A stretch of DNA of 10,826 nucleotides, from the IMG/VR virus record IMGVR_UViG_3300012983_002979; one strand, written 5' to 3'. Under the pieces are notes generated by a model, which did not search any database, was not told the DNA's origin, and saw nothing but the letters and a program-made list of their open reading frames with translations. Every line of letters starts with the position of its first letter. The first letter of the stretch is position 1. The stretch is from a virus. Its lineage: Duplodnaviria > Heunggongvirae > Uroviricota > Caudoviricetes. Positions 1 to 10,826 of this stretch are shown here, piece by piece. Position numbers and translations under genes: made by a program.

Positions 1-120
1 GCTAGTTTGTTAGTGGCGTGTCCGTCCGCAGCTGGCAAGCGAATGTAAAGACTGACTAAGCATGTAGTACCGAGGATGTAGGAATTTCGGACGCGGGTTC
101 AACTCCCGCCAGCTCCACCA
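1..120 (+). ncRNA. ssrA: tmRNA (SsrA), 3' terminal 120 nt; gene is truncated by the window start
   Basis: Sequence matches my recollection of the 3' part of E. coli tmRNA, ending in the tRNA-like acceptor arm GGTTCAACTCCCGCCAGCTCCACCA with terminal CCA at 118-120. Recognised from memory, not from a search. Confidence 0.92.
98..120 (+). other. Putative attL core at the ssrA 3' end (island/chromosome junction)
   Basis: An integrase gene lies immediately downstream of the tmRNA 3' end, and a degenerate copy of this segment recurs at 10688-10707. Exact crossover limits cannot be set from one window. Confidence 0.4.
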
Positions 121-153
121 CTTGCTCTTCCGGATACGTCCGGAGAAATCCTG

Positions 154-189
154 AAAGCCCGCATGGCGCAAGCCCTGTGGGCTTTTTTG
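154..189 (+). terminator. Rho-independent terminator downstream of ssrA
   Basis: AAGCCC(155-160)...GGGCTT(178-183) stem around a GC-rich loop, followed by a T-run (181-187). Confidence 0.45.
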
Positions 190-232
190 TGTCTACCGTT
201 GTCCGAGGATATCCCGCTAAATCCAGTGATTA

Positions 233-284
233 TTGGTATACGTTTAGGTATACGATAGGATGTATACCTAAACGCGTATACCAA
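233..284. promoter_or_regulatory. Near-perfect inverted repeat of a 22-bp motif (TTGGTATACGnTTAGGTATAC) just upstream of int; candidate integrase arm-type sites and/or int operator
   Basis: 233-253 TTGGTATACGTTTAGGTATAC; 262-284 is its reverse complement with a 2-nt insertion. A third copy lies at 10613-10634 near the right end. It sits between the ssrA terminator and the int RBS (AAGGAG 291-296). Confidence 0.4.
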
Positions 285-303
285 TTCATTAAGGAGCGGC
301 CAA

Positions 304-1497
304 GTGGCTCGGACAACACGCCCTCTGAGCAACACCGAAGTTCTACGTGCTAAAGCGCTAGATAAGGATCTAACACTGCATGATGGTGATGGGCTTTTTC
401 TGATAGTGAAAACAAACGGTAAAAAACTCTGGCGCTTTCGCTATCAACGACCAACTACAAAAAAAAGAACAATGATAGGGATAGGTGCTTTCCCAGCTAT
501 CTCACTTGCTGATGCTAGAAGGTTAAGGGCGAATTATCTTGCTTTGTTAGCTAATGGCCTAGATCCACAAGTTCAAGCTGAACTTATCGAAGAACAACAA
601 CAGATAGCCATAGACAGTATTTTTTCGACTGTTGCATTCAATTGGTTCCAGCTAAAAAGCAAAAGCGTTACCCCTGATTACGCTAAGGATATATGGCGCT
701 CTCTGGAAAAGGACATATTCCCAGCTATCGGGGAGCTCCCTGTCCAGCAAATCAAAGCCCGGACTCTAGTCGAAGCCCTTGAGCCAATAAAAGCACGTGG
801 GGCTCTTGAAACTGTACGTCGCCTGATACAGCGGATTAACGAGATTATGATTTATGCCGTAAATACTGGTCTGCTCGATGCAAATCCTGCATCAGGCGTC
901 GGGATGGCCTTTGAAAAACCCAAAAAACAAAATATGCGGACGCTGAGACCTGAAGAACTGCCGGAACTAATGCGTTCTTTAGCTATGTCAAACTTATCCG
1001 TTCCCACTCGCTGTCTTATAGAATGGCAACTTCTGACCCTCGTGCGTCCATCAGAGGCATCTGGTGCTCGGTGGGCTGAGCTCGATCTGGATGCAAAGCT
1101 CTGGGTGATTCCAAGCGAGCGGATGAAGGCTAAGCGAGAACATATTGTTCCTTTGTCTCCTCAAGCCTTAGACATTCTTATGGTGATGAAACCAATAAGT
1201 GGGCATCGGACATATATTTTTCCGAGTCGAAACGATCCCCAAAAAGCAATGAATAGCCAAACAGCAAATGCGGCATTAAAACGTATTGGATATGGACAAA
1301 AATTGGTTGCTCATGGTTTGCGTTCTATTGCAAGTACAGCGATGAATGAGGCAGGTTTTAATTCAGATGTTATTGAAACTGCACTTTCTCATGTTGACAA
1401 AGACGAAGTTCGGCGTGCATATAATCGCGCTTTATATCTCGAGCAACGTAAAGAGCTTTTAAATTGGTGGGGATTATTTGTCATGAACTCTAAATAA
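304..1497 (+). CDS. int: Tyrosine site-specific recombinase, P4-type integrase (397 aa, GTG start)
   Basis: ORF 304..1497 with AAGGAG 8 nt upstream. N-terminus (GDGLFLIVKTNGKKLWRFRY) resembles the arm-binding domain of P4-family integrases; C-terminus has HGLRS...RAYNRALYLEQR consistent with the catalytic His/Arg/Tyr region. Location next to the tmRNA 3' end is typical. Confidence 0.9.
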   Translation: MARTTRPLSNTEVLRAKALDKDLTLHDGDGLFLIVKTNGKKLWRFRYQRPTTKKRTMIGIGAFPAISLADARRLRANYLALLANGLDPQVQAELIEEQQQIAIDSIFSTVAFNWFQLKSKSVTPDYAKDIWRSLEKDIFPAIGELPVQQIKARTLVEALEPIKARGALETVRRLIQRINEIMIYAVNTGLLDANPASGVGMAFEKPKKQNMRTLRPEELPELMRSLAMSNLSVPTRCLIEWQLLTLVRPSEASGARWAELDLDAKLWVIPSERMKAKREHIVPLSPQALDILMVMKPISGHRTYIFPSRNDPQKAMNSQTANAALKRIGYGQKLVAHGLRSIASTAMNEAGFNSDVIETALSHVDKDEVRRAYNRALYLEQRKELLNWWGLFVMNSK

Positions 1498-1546: not shown

Positions 1547-2189
1547 CTGTAACAATTATAGGTTCATCTAGCATATATTGTTTTGCAACATATAAAGGAA
1601 AAAAATCTGAGGTATAAAAATTAAAAATATCCCATTGGATATAACACCAAAAAAGAATAACCAAAAGCATCAATGTTATATTTGCCATGGATATATGAAA
1701 ACTCCACAACAAACAAAACAAAAGAGAAAAAATAATCTCAGAGTTAATTATCTTAACTCGAAGATTAGCCTTTTTATCTGATATCTTTTTATCTATCTCC
1801 TTAATAATAAAAAAATCATGGGCATCATTTCGTTTTAACCCCTCATATTTCTCATAAATCCTTAAAATATAGCCATCAAAATCACCAATAAAAACAAGGT
1901 GATTGAAAACTGAAAAGTTTATTTTCTTATGACCATAATTTAAAACCAGAGAAATGATTAGGGCTTGTATTAATTGCAACACTGAAAGCCCTGACAGTAC
2001 TCCCTGTTGAAAATCAAGCACATCCTTAAGGGAAGTTTGATTCATGATATTATATATATCAACATTACCTTTCTGATAAGTCAACATAAAGAAAATTACC
2101 ATGAATAATATCAAAAAACGATGAAGAGGATACTTACAAGTAAGATCCTCAATATATTTCTCTTGGACTTTTTTTGCTAGTTCATCCAT
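1530..2189 (-). CDS. Hypothetical integral membrane protein, ~219 aa, four predicted TM helices (hotspot cargo gene 2)
   Basis: ORF 1530..2222 minus; preferred start is the ATG at 2189-2187 (MDELAKK...), which overlaps the upstream stop as TAATG and has AGGTG 5 nt upstream. Hydrophobic segments FLILFMVIFFMLTY, VLSGLSVLQLIQALIISLVL, IIFSLLFCLLWSF and ITLMLLVILFWCYIQW, with a charged ~60-aa loop between TM2 and TM3. Very AT-rich. Confidence 0.65.
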   Translation of the reverse strand: MDELAKKVQEKYIEDLTCKYPLHRFLILFMVIFFMLTYQKGNVDIYNIMNQTSLKDVLDFQQGVLSGLSVLQLIQALIISLVLNYGHKKINFSVFNHLVFIGDFDGYILRIYEKYEGLKRNDAHDFFIIKEIDKKISDKKANLRVKIINSEIIFSLLFCLLWSFHISMANITLMLLVILFWCYIQWDIFNFYTSDFFPLYVAKQYMLDEPIIVTEGFHE

Positions 2190-3088
2190 TAATACACCTG
2201 TATAAAATATACATCTCCACAATTTGGATCAAAAGCTCCATATTCTATATATGGAGCACCTAAAAACACCATCTCTCTTTCATTCTGAAAATAAGGAAAA
2301 ACCTCTTGAAAATCTTCTTTTGAGGCAAATCTCAGTGTACTTACCGAATTGTTAAAACTGTTTTTCATTTTAGCAGAAAGATATTGCAAATCCATCTCTG
2401 TAACTTTCACTCGATAAATTACAGGGTCACCCAATTTCTTCCTAGTTATAACCCTATGAAAATCATTGGCTTTTGCTCTATTGAACCCAAAAACCTCTGT
2501 GCGATCTGCTGTCAACGATATTTCTAGCGAGCTATCCCCTGAATGATGAGACCTAATAATTGCCAACATTTGATCTATCTCTCTCACAATTGCTCGGTCA
2601 CCATACCGTCGATTAACTGCTGCATCCGGATTTTCCAAAAGTTGCTGATAATCACGAGGTAAAATTTTCTGGCTAGCAATTTGTGCACGTCTAGTCTCTA
2701 CACTTTTACTAATAGTTTCAGCATTTTCAAGACCAGACTGCTGTGCTTCTTTAACTGCATTATTTAGTGCATTTGAAACCCTTTCGACTACTTTTTTTGT
2801 AACATCTTTCTTAGAGAAGAAGTCGATAATATATCCACCTTCTCTAGGGGGCTGTACCAACAGTTCAACATCTTTATAGTAGTCATGATGCATCTTTGCA
2901 TATTTCCAAAGATTACCATGTCTGATGTCAAGATAAGCCCGATCTAAGGCACTTTGCAAATGGCCTAGGCTTTTAGAAAGAGTTCTCAGGGATACTTGGT
3001 GATCAGGTGCAATATCGCCATCAAAATGCAATTCAACAATCGCCACTTCACTTTGCTCCATGTGGAAAAATAAGTCGTTAATGTTCAT
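2189..3088 (-). CDS. Hypothetical protein, 299 aa, no recognisable motif (hotspot cargo gene 1)
   Basis: Long ORF in AT-rich DNA, same orientation as and translationally coupled to the membrane-protein gene. No Walker A, zinc finger or obvious nuclease motif seen by eye. The SD upstream of the ATG at 3088 is weak. Confidence 0.7.
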   Translation of the reverse strand: MNINDLFFHMEQSEVAIVELHFDGDIAPDHQVSLRTLSKSLGHLQSALDRAYLDIRHGNLWKYAKMHHDYYKDVELLVQPPREGGYIIDFFSKKDVTKKVVERVSNALNNAVKEAQQSGLENAETISKSVETRRAQIASQKILPRDYQQLLENPDAAVNRRYGDRAIVREIDQMLAIIRSHHSGDSSLEISLTADRTEVFGFNRAKANDFHRVITRKKLGDPVIYRVKVTEMDLQYLSAKMKNSFNNSVSTLRFASKEDFQEVFPYFQNEREMVFLGAPYIEYGAFDPNCGDVYFIQVY

Positions 3089-5807: not shown

Positions 5808-6074
5808 ATGCAAGCTGTTTTTTCTTCCCCGTCTCCCGCCCCTGTGACGCCACTGATGCCGCTGCCGGACATCACGCAGGAGCGTTTTTTACGTCTGCCG
5901 GAAGTGATGCACCTGTGCGGCCTGTCACGCTCGACCATCTATGAACTCATCCGTAAGGGGGAATTTCCGCCGCAGGTGAGTCTTGGCGGTAAAAATGTGG
6001 CCTGGCTGCACTCTGAAGTCACCGCATGGATGGCCGGCCGCATTGCCGGACGCAAACGGGGGTATGACGCATGA
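5808..6074 (+). CDS. vis: Vis/AlpA-family HTH regulator, excision and late-gene control (88 aa)
   Basis: [50 protein letters not shown] matches the AlpA-type HTH pattern. 88 aa from the ATG at 5808 (GAGG 8 nt upstream); an alternative start at 5856 would give ~72 aa. Confidence 0.75.
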
Positions 6075-6138: not shown

Positions 6139-6329
6139 TTTTTCCGCTGTCGCAAAATCGGCAGCCGGGCGTAGGAACCCGTGTAACTCGAAGGCGACAT
6201 ATGACGCGCCATGCGTCTTTTTTTGTGTCGCAATCAACGCCACAGAGCGCCAGATTATGGTGTGGCGTGTGGTTTGCCGTGCAGGTATGATCCTGTTCGC
6301 AATCGCATGTTATGCCACTGAGTCAATGG

Positions 6330-6400
6330 TAGCTCAGGCGGGGCAGCCTCCGGGCTGGCCGGTATTCTTCGAGGCCGGTATTCCTACCCCCGTCTGGGCT
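6330..6400 (+). ncRNA. cI: CI-like immunity RNA region (seqB-like core); boundaries approximate
   Basis: The central segment 6367-6387 (CTTCGAGGCCGGTATTCCTAC) is complementary to the bipartite GTAGGAA...CTCGAAG(G) motifs at 6171-6194 and 6414-6453, as in P4 seqA/seqB/seqC. RNA ends cannot be set from sequence. Confidence 0.35.
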
Positions 6401-6463
6401 ATCGCCATCGAGCGTAGGAACTCCGGCGATAGCAGTTATTTGCTACTCGAAGGAGACTGCCTT

Positions 6464-7859: not shown

Positions 7860-10193
7860 ATGAAAATGAACGTAACCGCCACCGTCAGCCATGCGCTCGG
7901 CCACTGGCCGCGTATTCTCCCGGCGCTGGGGATTCAGGTGCTGAAAAACCGTCATCAGCCCTGTCCGGTCTGTGGCGGGAGTGACCGCTTCCGTTTTGAT
8001 GACAGGGAGGGGCGCGGCACCTGGTACTGCAATCAGTGTGGTGCCGGTGACGGCCTGAAACTGGTTGAAAAGGTGTTTGGTGTTTCCCCGTCCGACGCGG
8101 CCGCAAAGGTGGCTGCCGTGACCGGCAGCCTGCCACCGGCTGACCCGGCAGTGACGACCGCCGCCGTTGCTGAAACAGACGCTGCCCGGAAGAGCGCCGC
8201 CGCACTGGCACAAACCCTGATGGCGAAAACCCGTCCCGGAACCGGTAACGCCTACCTGACCCGCAAGGGCTTTCCCGGCCGGGAATGCCGGATGCTGACC
8301 GGCACACTCAGAGCCGGTGGCGTGAGCTGGCGTGCCGGTGACCTTGTGGTGCCACTGTATGACGACAGCGGCGAACTGGTTAACCTTCAGTTAATCAGTG
8401 CTGACGGCCGTAAGCGCACCCTGAAAGGCGGACAGGTCAGGGGCACCTGTCACACCCTTGAAGGACAGAATCAGGCCGGAAAACGTCTGTGGATAGCGGA
8501 GGGATACGCGACCGCACTTACCGTACATCACCTGACCGGTGAAACGGTGATGGTGGCGCTTTCTTCCGTGAACCTCCTTTCTCTGGCCAGCCTTGCCCGG
8601 CAGAAGCATCCGGCCTGTCAGATTGTCCTTGCCGCAGACCGTGACCTCAGCGGTGACGGCCAGAAAAAAGCCGCCGCAGCCGCAGATGCGTGTGAAGGTG
8701 TTGTTGCCCTGCCGCCGGTCTTCGGTGACTGGAATGATGCCTTCACGCAGTACGGCGGGGAGGTCACCCGTAAGGCCATTTACGATGCCATCCGGCCACC
8801 GGCTGAAAGCCCGTTCGACACCATGAGCGAAGCAGAGTTTTCCGCCATGAGTACCAGCGAAAAGGCCATGCGTATCTATGAGCATTACGGCGAGGCGCTC
8901 GCGGTCGATGCCAACGGCCAGCTTCTGTCCCGCTATGAAAATGGTGTCTGGAAGGTGCTGCCGCCACAGGACTTTGCCCGGGATGTGGCCGGGCTGTTTC
9001 AGCGTCTGCGCGCGCCGTTCTCCTCCGGGAAGGTGGCCTCCGTGGTGGACACCCTGAAGCTGATTATTCCGCAGCAGGAAGCCCCCTCCCGCCGCCTGAT
9101 TGGCTTTCGTAACGGTGTGCTCGACACGCAGAACGGCACGTTCCACCCGCACAGTCCGTCACACTGGATGCGCACCCTGTGCGATGTGGATTTCACCCCG
9201 CCGGTGGACGGTGAAACGCTGGAAACCCACGCCCCCGCGTTCTGGCGCTGGCTTGACCGTGCCGCCGGTGGCCGTGCGGAAAAACGCGACGTGATTCTGG
9301 CCGCACTGTTTATGGTGCTGGCAAACCGCTACGACTGGCAGCTCTTTCTGGAGGTGACCGGTCCCGGCGGCAGCGGCAAAAGTATCATGGCCGAAATAGC
9401 CACCCTGCTGGCCGGGGAGGATAACGCCACGTCGGCCACCATCGAGACGCTGGAATCCCCGCGTGAACGTGCCGCGTTAACTGGCTTCTCACTGATACGC
9501 CTGCCGGACCAGGAAAAATGGAGCGGCGACGGTGCCGGACTCAAGGCCATCACCGGCGGCGATGCGGTGTCCGTGGACCCGAAATACCGGGATGCGTACT
9601 CCACGCATATCCCGGCGGTGATTCTGGCCGTGAACAATAACCCGATGCGCTTCACCGACCGCAGCGGCGGCGTGTCACGCCGGCGGGTGATTATTCACTT
9701 CCCGGAACAGATAGCCCCGCAGGAGCGCGACCCGCAGCTTAAGGACAAAATCACCCGCGAGCTGGCGGTCATCGTGCGTCACCTGATGCAGAAATTCAGC
9801 GACCCGATGCTCGCCCGGTCACTGCTTCAGTCCCAGCAGAACTCAGACGAGGCACTGAACATCAAACGGGATGCCGACCCGACGTTTGATTTTATCGGCT
9901 ATCTGGAAACCCTGCCGCAGACCAGCGGCATGTATATGGGGAACGCCAGTATCATCCCGCGTAATTACCGTAAATACCTCTATCACGCCTATCTGGCCTA
10001 CATGGAGGCAAACGGCTACCGGAATGTACTCAGTCTGAAAATGTTCGGGCTGGGGCTGCCGGTGATGCTGAAGGAATACGGACTGAATTACGAGAAGCGC
10101 CATACCAAACAGGGGATACAGACCAACCTGACGCTGAAAGAGGAAAGCTACGGCGACTGGCTGCCAAAATGTGACGACCCTGCAACAACCTGA
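7860..10193 (+). CDS. alpha: Alpha: bifunctional primase-helicase replication protein (777 aa)
   Basis: N-terminal zinc-binding primase motif (CPVCGGSDRFRFDD...WYCNQCG), TOPRIM-like region (LWIAEGYATALT...LAADRD), Walker A (VTGPGGSGKS) in a D5-like helicase domain. 777 aa as in P4 alpha. Confidence 0.95.
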   Translation: MKMNVTATVSHALGHWPRILPALGIQVLKNRHQPCPVCGGSDRFRFDDREGRGTWYCNQCGAGDGLKLVEKVFGVSPSDAAAKVAAVTGSLPPADPAVTTAAVAETDAARKSAAALAQTLMAKTRPGTGNAYLTRKGFPGRECRMLTGTLRAGGVSWRAGDLVVPLYDDSGELVNLQLISADGRKRTLKGGQVRGTCHTLEGQNQAGKRLWIAEGYATALTVHHLTGETVMVALSSVNLLSLASLARQKHPACQIVLAADRDLSGDGQKKAAAAADACEGVVALPPVFGDWNDAFTQYGGEVTRKAIYDAIRPPAESPFDTMSEAEFSAMSTSEKAMRIYEHYGEALAVDANGQLLSRYENGVWKVLPPQDFARDVAGLFQRLRAPFSSGKVASVVDTLKLIIPQQEAPSRRLIGFRNGVLDTQNGTFHPHSPSHWMRTLCDVDFTPPVDGETLETHAPAFWRWLDRAAGGRAEKRDVILAALFMVLANRYDWQLFLEVTGPGGSGKSIMAEIATLLAGEDNATSATIETLESPRERAALTGFSLIRLPDQEKWSGDGAGLKAITGGDAVSVDPKYRDAYSTHIPAVILAVNNNPMRFTDRSGGVSRRRVIIHFPEQIAPQERDPQLKDKITRELAVIVRHLMQKFSDPMLARSLLQSQQNSDEALNIKRDADPTFDFIGYLETLPQTSGMYMGNASIIPRNYRKYLYHAYLAYMEANGYRNVLSLKMFGLGLPVMLKEYGLNYEKRHTKQGIQTNLTLKEESYGDWLPKCDDPATT

Positions 10194-10234: not shown

Positions 10235-10252
10235 ATCCCTGAATTCCCCGAA

Positions 10253-10554
10253 GGTGAACAATCCACTGTTCACCCTTCACCGTATATTCACCCGTTATCA
10301 CACTGAAATTAAAAGAGAAAAACGAAAGGTGAACAGTGTGAACAATCAAATCAAAAAAAACTTTTTTCTCCCTGTGTGATTTTCAGTACGGGGGATTAAT
10401 CACCGGTATGAGTCACACCGGCAGAATGCCGGAGGTGAAGAATCGAATGTTCACCCTTCACCCATTATTCACCACCTATCCAACTGAAATAAAAGGAGAA
10501 AACAGAAAGGTGAACAGTGTGAACAGTTCTTTCGAAAAAAAATTTTTTTCCTGT
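10253..10554. repeat. crr-like cis replication region: two ~120-bp direct repeats (10253-10375 and 10433-10554) separated by ~57 bp, each with TGTTCACC/GGTGAACA iterons
   Basis: The two units align along their length (GGTGAACAATCCACTGTTCACCCTTCACC...GAAAGGTGAACAGTGTGAACA...CCTGT versus GGTGAAGAATCGAATGTTCACCCTTCACC...GAAAGGTGAACAGTGTGAACA...CCTGT). P4 crr is two 120-bp direct repeats ~60 bp apart carrying the alpha-binding octamer. Confidence 0.6.
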
Positions 10555-10612
10555 ACGATATAGCATCAATCCAAGTAAAAATGCGTTTTCATTTCACATT
10601 AACTTACAGCCA

Positions 10613-10634
10613 TTGGTATACGATTAGGTATACG
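10613..10634. promoter_or_regulatory. Third copy of the 22-bp TTGGTATACGnTTAGGTATACG motif; candidate integrase arm site near the right end
   Basis: TTGGTATACGATTAGGTATACG differs by 1 nt from the 233-254 copy. Confidence 0.35.
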
Positions 10635-10687
10635 CACAAAAAATGAATTAAACAAAATCATTAAAAATCAAAGCAATACAATATTTA

Positions 10688-10707
10688 TTCAAACTCCGCC
10701 AGCCCAC
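10688..10707 (+). other. Degenerate copy of the ssrA 3' end; putative attR or junction with a neighbouring element
   Basis: TTCAAACTCCGCCAGCCCAC versus ssrA TTCAACTCCCGCCAGCTCCAC (99-119). Followed at 10741-10774 by a terminator-like hairpin resembling the one at 154-189. Confidence 0.35.
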
Positions 10708-10740
10708 TTTTTAGTTGTTTGAAGTTCAATGAAGTCTACT

Positions 10741-10774
10741 AAGCCCACACAGCACAAGCTCTGCGGGCTTTTTT
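10741..10774 (+). terminator. Terminator-like hairpin plus T-run, paralogous to the ssrA terminator
   Basis: AAGCCC...GGGCTT then TTTTTT; similar in sequence and layout to 154-189. Confidence 0.35.
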
Positions 10775-10826
10775 ACGTCTATTGTCGTCCAGTGAGAATT
10801 GCTGAGAACTACGAGTTATGGCACCC

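Follow-up and report, generated by a model that had tools for sequence, protein, structure and literature searches.

A P4-type satellite prophage in Escherichia coli ssrA whose right end very probably abuts an older ssrA island, at a junction belonging to a nested series of deletions

The stretch of DNA analysed here (10,826 nucleotides, hereafter the window) is a complete P4-type satellite prophage inserted in the tmRNA gene (ssrA) of E. coli. The features are summarized in Table 1. RefSeq annotates ssrA at the position of window 1-120 in matching genomes, and the satellite integrase gene, the product of which contains the Arm-DNA-bind_3, Phage_int_M and Phage_integrase domains, begins 184 nt past the CCA end of ssrA. 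The core set of a P4-like satellite is present (psu, delta, sid, alpha, a CI-type RNA and crr). Psu and Ogr/Delta (Pfam) and a Sid-like gene are encoded on the minus strand of the satellite; the assignment of sid comes from the RefSeq annotation of near-identical copies only, with no Pfam match. At least 80% of the window was found in 294 of 5426 complete E. coli genomes by megablast, always beside smpB-ssrA, and RefSeq annotates sid, psu and Icd-like genes in the genomes carrying it. Window 10400-10548 matches the crr of the P4 phage at 97% identity, and homology to P4 ends with the crr-like region as a whole, after which comes the swapped integration module.

Matches to isrK (69 bits) and to the C4 antisense RNA (74 bits) adjoin each other on the plus strand at 6146-6223 and 6322-6409 (Rfam); the pair is presumably the P4-type immunity RNA region, CI RNA with its leader. 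Between int and psu lie two overlapping cargo ORFs of 230 and 299 amino acids on the minus strand (1530-2222 and 2189-3088), which match only PHROGs of unassigned function (phrog_31922 and phrog_28486) and gave no match in Pfam or PADLOC scans. We take the int-psu slot of P4-like satellites to be a variable hotspot for cargo and defence genes; in strain P15-385 it is occupied by a SIR2 protein and an ATPase.

Table 1. Features of the window (positions in nucleotides from its first letter)
Feature	Position	Strand	Basis or remark
ssrA (tmRNA), 3' third	1-120	+	Rfam RF00023, 99.5 bits, model positions 249-374
attL core TTCAACTCCCGCCAGCTCCACCA	98-120	+	within ssrA 3' third
8-bp block CCGCCAGC common to attL and attR, attL copy	106-113	+	
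T corresponding to U357 of the G.U identity pair	114		within ssrA 3' third
Satellite P' arm: spacer, terminator, probable arm-type integrase sites	121-303	+	
Terminator now ending ssrA transcription	hairpin 153-186, T run to 189	+	fold
Candidate arm-type sites in P' arm, TTGGTATACGTTTAGGTATAC	233-253	+	direct repeat D18
Inverted pair of GTATACC half-sites, P' arm	262-282		motif count
Satellite integrase, P4-type tyrosine recombinase with arm-binding domain	304-1497	+	Pfam
AlpA/Vis-family excisionase and regulator	5808-6074	+	Pfam Phage_AlpA 7e-21; PHROG 'excisionase and transcriptional regulator'
alpha primase-helicase	7860-10193		Pfam primase domains
P4 crr-like replication region, two 120-nt direct repeats	10248-10548	+	repeat D1
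Candidate arm-type integrase site in P arm, TTGGTATACGATTAGGTATAC	10613-10633	+	D18, motif count
Satellite-borne attR half TTCAAACTCCGCCAGC, attP-derived core	10688-10703	+	sequence comparison
8-bp identity block CCGCCAGC, attR copy	10696-10703	+	
CCA, remainder of displaced ssrA end TCCACCA	10704-10706	+	compared with intact junction of 11PC
Element 2 left (P') arm: spacer 10707-10740, putative relic ssrA terminator 10741-10774, integrase leader	10707-10826	+	

The motif GGTATAC/GTATACC occurs six times in the window and is confined to the two att arms, against an expectation of about 1.3 in 10.8 kb on both strands. The left arm (233-283) has one direct and one inverted pair of copies and the right arm one direct pair; they are probably arm-type sites of the integrase. 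This integrase is 59% identical to IntA of CP4-57 and 48% identical to the integrase of a second island, element 2, which is described below.

The original prediction held that the right end bears a diverged copy of the ssrA 3' end at 10688-10707, followed by a terminator-like hairpin at 10741-10774 that parallels the one at the left end. Both were confirmed, the core copy at the coordinates first given and the hairpin as a homologue of the terminator at 153-189. Positions 98-120 read TTCAACTCCCGCCAGCTCCACCA and positions 10688-10709 read TTCAAACTCCGCCAGCCCACTT; a gapped local alignment has 19 identities, three single-base indels and a score of 23, which none of 2000 shuffles reached (mean 10.3, maximum 20). 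The terminator pair (155-204 and 10741-10790, repeat family D6) is 78% identical over 50 nt without gaps, and its score of 45 compares with a maximum of 24 both in 2000 shuffles, none of which reached it, and across 338 other windows of the same sequence. Both hairpins fold into a G+C-rich stem followed by a U run, at -23.4 kcal/mol on the left (z -4.6) and -15.0 kcal/mol on the right (z -4.0), and the helix is kept across five aligned homologous copies, with one compensatory GC/AU pair. The spacing from core to hairpin is also similar at the two ends (56 and 53 nt). The likeness of the terminators and spacers follows from the homology of the two integration modules; the ssrA terminator of K-12, which is borne by CP4-57, aligns with both.

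Comparison with other genomes locates the right end of the satellite. In genomes that have the satellite alone, the match to the window (megablast) runs to 10704-10707 and is lost beyond. In E21845/O/A, for example, the sequence is 100% identical up to 10704, reading GCCAGC-CACCA-ATCATGATTGG and then ypjA; the same flank ATCATGATTGG follows ssrA at empty sites and follows the CP4-57 attR in K-12. A comparison with the empty locus, put forward along with the original prediction, agreed with this placement: an unoccupied ssrA-TCCACCA-ATCATGATTGG is present in many genomes, including the type strain, and this empty site is composed of attL-left and attR-right, as an integrative island requires. 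The attR predicted for a fresh insertion of the satellite at the empty site (satellite, TCCACCA, ATCATG) was likewise found at 100% identity. Since the satellite ends there and the empty-site flank lies beyond, we place the right boundary of the satellite at 10703/10704.

The right-end copy had also been read as a decayed attR lacking the terminal CCA context, a reading that holds for one side of GCCAGC only. On the left side, where the window has TTCAAACT and TTCAACTC at its two ends, the differences are the element's own core arm, because they are identical in every copy of the satellite examined and near-identical in CP4-57. The half TTCAAACTCCGCCAGC was invariant in all 19 satellite attR sequences read, whatever flank follows, and the attR of CP4-57 in K-12, a remnant of 14 nt annotated as the pseudogene psaA, reads TTCAGACTCCGCCAGC-CCACCA. 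On the right side the decay is real and amounts to the loss of TCCA. Four bases of the terminal context are thus gone, yet a CCA persists (GCCAGC-CCA-C). Fresh junctions have 15 bp in common between attL and attR (CCGCCAGCTCCACCA); at the window junction the block of identity with attL is CCGCCAGC only.

The original prediction also raised the possibility that a second element adjoins the first in a tandem array at ssrA, and the DNA beyond the boundary bears this out. In many E. coli genomes, an intact ssrA is directly followed by DNA 100% identical to window 10704-10826; ssrA abuts this arm in approximately 636 genomes. In CRE10 the order is GCCAGCTCCACCA-CTTTTTAGTTG, then the hairpin, then an integrase that begins 166 nt past the CCA end of ssrA, and the state of the window context before integration is represented there by GCCAGCTCCACCACTTTTT. 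As the DNA from 10704 onward is the attL arm that abuts intact ssrA elsewhere, the hairpin at 10741-10774 would be the ssrA terminator of element 2 and not part of the satellite attR; it presumably still terminates transcription where element 2 occurs by itself, and would be a relic in the window. The junction of satellite and element 2 was found in 67 genomes, and in genomes with the window's junction the second integrase begins about 46-50 nt past the window-equivalent end. In P15-385, the junction of which is base-for-base identical to that of the window, this distance is 46 nt; strain E2 has a diverged variant of the arrangement. The array is seen in the genomes that share the junction, and the window itself would end 47 nt before the second integrase. 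We consider that the right end of the window is a tandem-array junction, at which the attR of the satellite abuts the left end of an older ssrA island, with a probability of about 0.88. These assignments of the boundary and of the hairpin matter for delineating the islands and for predicting the outcome of excision.

A single island, with an attR that simply decayed from an exact ssrA copy and ordinary chromosome beyond it, is very unlikely. Direct repeats flanking tRNA and tmRNA islands do decay in old cryptic elements, and the right-end copy differs from ssrA by three indels, but the differences to the left of GCCAGC recur identically in every satellite copy read and nearly so in the CP4-57 attR, the DNA past 10703 is the attL arm of another island that abuts intact ssrA in hundreds of genomes, and a second integrase comes after that arm in the genomes inspected. 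That the two ends resemble each other by chance, or that the indels are errors of sequencing or assembly, deserves practically no credence: the core copy is short (20 nt) and C-rich and homopolymer errors are common in long-read assemblies, but neither alignment score was reached by shuffling, the 4-nt difference is not a homopolymer change, the identical junction stands in an independent complete genome (P15-385) and a neighbouring allele recurs in 17 assemblies.

The 5.5-kb remnant that is element 2 carries an integrase gene, a small ORF and genes for a receiver-domain protein and an ATPase. At its distal end it is cut by an IS3 beside a truncated ygaQ (alpha-amylase) pseudogene (locus L012 5944-8280 of CRE10; locus L004 17549-19884), and no attR of its own is present at these two loci; element 2 is probably immobile. 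The arm motifs of the islands differ, being GGTATAC in the satellite, GGGACCC/GGGTCCC in element 2 and repeats of the GGCCCA/GGACCA type in CP4-57.

For the tandem array, we propose the following order of events. The older element 2 would have integrated in ssrA first, supplying a new 3' end (TCCACCA), a spacer and an intrinsic terminator. A P4-like satellite with a CP4-57-type integration module would later have entered the same ssrA 3' end, so that the live ssrA end and terminator would now come from its P' arm (121-303), and its P arm would close with TTCAAACTCCGCCAGC, an imperfect core half belonging to the satellite. What had been the ssrA end and terminator of element 2 would have moved 10.6 kb downstream (10704-10790) and would now be relics. 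The loss of TCCA directly 3' of GCCAGC would have come after integration, or during it. Two routes may be considered: the satellite may have entered a CRE10-type site, the junction then losing 4 nt, or an H19-type site (GCTCCAC-TTTTT; see below), the junction then losing the T.

The deletion at the window junction is one member of a nested series anchored directly after GCCAGC. The intact junction of satellite and element 2, GCCAGC|TCCACCAC-TTTTT (GCCAGCTCCACCACTTTTT), was read in strain 11PC (locus L010), and three further records have the same alignment length; strain MCJCHV-1 has an intact junction as well. The window lacks TCCA relative to the intact form. Besides the intact form, about 11 deleted forms of the junction were read, with losses of 1 to 26 nt. 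After GCCAGC, the alleles continue, from the smallest loss to the largest, as TCCACCAC-TTTTT (intact), CCACCAC (T lost), CCCAC, CCAC (the window), CC-TTTTT (17 records have this alignment length), CC-TTTT, C-TTTT, C-TTAG, TT-GTTTG (15 nt lost), C-GTTTG and TC-AATGAAG (26 nt lost). Every deletion read starts immediately 3' of GCCAGC and the element side is uneroded among these alleles, which are a sample (the satellite attR junctions number roughly 240 in all) and in which assembly errors may underlie part of the 1-nt differences within runs of T or C. In the empty-site context, the junction was either intact or had lost T, TC, TCCA or 5 nt. When one genome per species was scanned for TTCARACTCCGCCAGC, at least 120 stretches matched, mostly by chance and in unrelated phyla; among the matches listed, five attR sites from Enterobacterales were usable, of which those of Xenorhabdus and two Pantoea lack 4 nt, that of Raoultella lacks TCC and that of Cedecea lacks T. 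The Raoultella and Cedecea sites are followed by a CP4-57-like left arm, and are thus tandem arrays too. The anchor was seen in two E. coli flank contexts and in five other genera. For other ssrA islands, the alleles CGCCAGC-CCACCA, CGCCAGC-----CA and CCCCAGC----CCA appear, after Williams 2003, in Table 1 of PMC10107115. The attR and the tandem junction are of a known kind, and the fixed anchor of the deletions is a mildly new point.

Why the deletions share an anchor can be explained in two ways. If the integrase cleaved or joined abortively or wrongly at the right edge of the overlap, only the chromosomal (B') side would be eroded, and the loss of TCCA in the window would be one step of this erosion. 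This explanation is quite possible, with the odds slightly against it. At least 11 alleles in the element 2 context (1 to 26 nt) have a common left end with the satellite side uneroded, the same anchor is seen at the empty site (losses of 1, 2, 4 and 5 nt) and it recurs in CP4-57 of K-12, Xenorhabdus, two Pantoea, Raoultella and Cedecea. The surrounding DNA is approximately 100% identical among the genomes, which puts the rate of deletion at this spot far above background. Cleavage at the anchor bond is, however, a prediction from sequence, and the conversion of a single-strand covalent intermediate into a fixed deletion is speculative; moreover, the alleles were sampled, so a left-eroded one may have been missed, and assembly errors may account for part of the 1-nt changes.

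Selection could enrich the same alleles instead, in that islands whose loss kills tmRNA would be retained, as in the 'regulatory switch' idea of PMC10107115, and the alleles that make island loss costly would be the survivors. Closely related STEC genomes of 5.4 Mb show a stepwise shortening (CC-TTTTT, CC-TTTT, C-TTTT, C-TTAG), and there is no microhomology by which slippage would explain the loss of 1 nt (T) or 4 nt (TCCA); both observations favour a site-specific process. The fuller proposal, that the attR deletions are a footprint of P4-type integrases extending from the C356/U357 bond and turn excisable elements into ones whose loss kills tmRNA, appears rather doubtful to us. If it were true, the cleavage site of this integrase family could be located by comparative genomics alone, and mobile elements would become 'locked in' through damage to the displaced gene copy.

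The series also bears on excision, which the original prediction expected to be hindered by the decayed attR. This expectation was not supported, as CCGCCAGC, the only block common to attL and to all attR alleles, is intact. Because no other block is common to them, strand exchange is likely to lie within CCGCCAGC. This 8-bp block is also present in the attR of CP4-57, where only the T next to it is missing (1 nt, compared with 4 nt in the window), and CP4-57 excises experimentally, deleting U357 and inactivating tmRNA (PMC10107115, PMC3105296). The excision of CP4So was verified by sequencing and deletes the U from SsrA (PMC5148205). A crossover in CCACCA with a T-less attP was considered and rejected, since fresh attR alleles keep the T and since the published excisions of CP4-57 and CP4So remove U357, which puts the exchange to the left of the T (PMC10107115, PMC5148205). 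The satellite keeps its integrase, AlpA/Vis and arm sites, and is probably still excisable; the 4-nt loss alters the presumed right core-type binding site and could impair excision after all.

The G.U pair is an identity element for alanyl-tRNA synthetase. In the window, attR lacks U357 and more with the crossover block intact (GCCAGC-CCA-C, compared with GCCAGCTCCACCA in ssrA), and excision would be expected to leave ssrA as GCCAGC-CCA-CTTTTT, with a predicted attB of ...CTCCCGCCAGC|CCACTTTTTAG and a predicted attP of ...TTCAAACTCCGCCAGC|TCCACCACTTGCTC. Because this product lacks U357 and three further bases, the tmRNA of an excisant would presumably not be charged with alanine and could not support trans-translation. 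Inactivity has been shown for tmRNA with U357 deleted and for larger deletion alleles (PMC10107115). ARAGORN still calls a tmRNA in the simulated excision product, with a shifted acceptor stem, which is no evidence of function. With this analysis, a P4-type satellite joins the ssrA elements for which excision is predicted to shut down trans-translation; the shutdown has been shown experimentally for CP4-57 and CP4So only.

No excised or circular form of the satellite (attP, pattern TTCAAACTCCGCCAGC-N(2-12)-CTTGCTCTTCCGG) was found in IMG/VR, and the phage collection held no packaged relative with this att region, the only match to the right arm being the crr of P4. The scar predicted for the window allele in a live ssrA was found in none of the complete genomes searched, which fits counter-selection of excisants and equally fits rare excision. 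A 67-nt query for an empty site with U357 deleted gave 13 exact matches, of which those in DTU-1 and KL53 were looked at; only the match in DTU-1 (NZ_CP026612), a laboratory strain, was to an annotated ssrA. The DTU-1 sequence matches the published excision scar of CP4-57. The match in KL53 (NZ_CP030919, locus L013 2501-2567) is a displaced ssrA fragment beside a P2-like prophage (CI repressor, integrase); it comprises at least 31 nt of perfect ssrA and lacks U357, though the crossover of that element must lie far upstream. One possible origin is integration into a host in which ssrA already bore the U357-deleted scar, that is, the rescue of a dead ssrA.

Among the closest known systems, CP4-57 shares with the satellite the target, an IntA-family integrase, an AlpA-type excisionase, a homologous terminator supplied to ssrA and a deletion directly after GCCAGC, and its attR core half, TTCAGACTCCGCCAGC, corresponds to TTCAAACTCCGCCAGC. 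However, CP4-57 is a cryptic element of 22 kb, whereas the satellite is of P4 type and 10.6 kb, with sid, psu, delta, alpha and crr; the CP4-57 attR is followed by chromosomal DNA (ypjA side) and that of the window by the left arm of another island; and the two differ in the length lost at attR (1 and 4 nt) and in their arm-type motifs. Satellite P4 resembles the window in gene set and order, crr, the C4/CI-type RNA, an integrase beside att and repeated arm sites. P4 integrates in leuX, in contrast to the window, where the integration module (10549-10703 and 121-1497) has been exchanged for an ssrA-specific one. The P4 core is an exact 20-bp copy of the leuX 3' end, whereas the satellite shares only the 15 bp of CCGCCAGCTCCACCA with its target even in fresh junctions. 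CP4So of Shewanella oneidensis also has a P4-type integrase at ssrA and an attR without the T (PMC5148205), but it belongs to a different genus, is a prophage of 36 kb, shows the 1-nt allele only and has no tandem neighbour described. In other known arrays at ssrA, successive integrases likewise act on one and the same 3' end, every newcomer restoring the gene and displacing the former end downstream; displaced ssrA fragments are listed for islands of Salmonella, Yersinia, Vibrio and E. coli. The portions of the literature covered by our search contained no description of the pair of this satellite with the 5.5-kb element 2 or of the within-species allelic series.

Other alterations were observed at the ssrA locus. 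The live ssrA reads GCCAGCTCCAC-TTTTT in 11 complete genomes of STEC type, among them H19 (NZ_AP027165, locus L005 2489-2511), O111:H11 8D and RM6927; these genes encode the CCA end without its last two bases, CA, an unusual state for E. coli. Elsewhere, in related strains (locus L006), this allele is a displaced fragment behind another island. We considered the H19 ssrA (GCTCCAC-TTTTT) as an excision scar of a window-type array and find this unlikely, as it needs a crossover to the right of the T, contrary to the experiments; slippage loss of one CCA unit from CCACCAC would be the simpler explanation. Older attR-like remnants, TTCAGTCACTGCCAGCCCACCA and TTCAGACACCGCCAGCTCAACAA, occur in K-12 (locus L008 28061-28082, pinH-ypjB) and at locus L002 26865-26887, approximately 5 kb past the CP4-57 attR, and the interval from ssrA to ygaQ therefore holds fossil ends of several successive islands.
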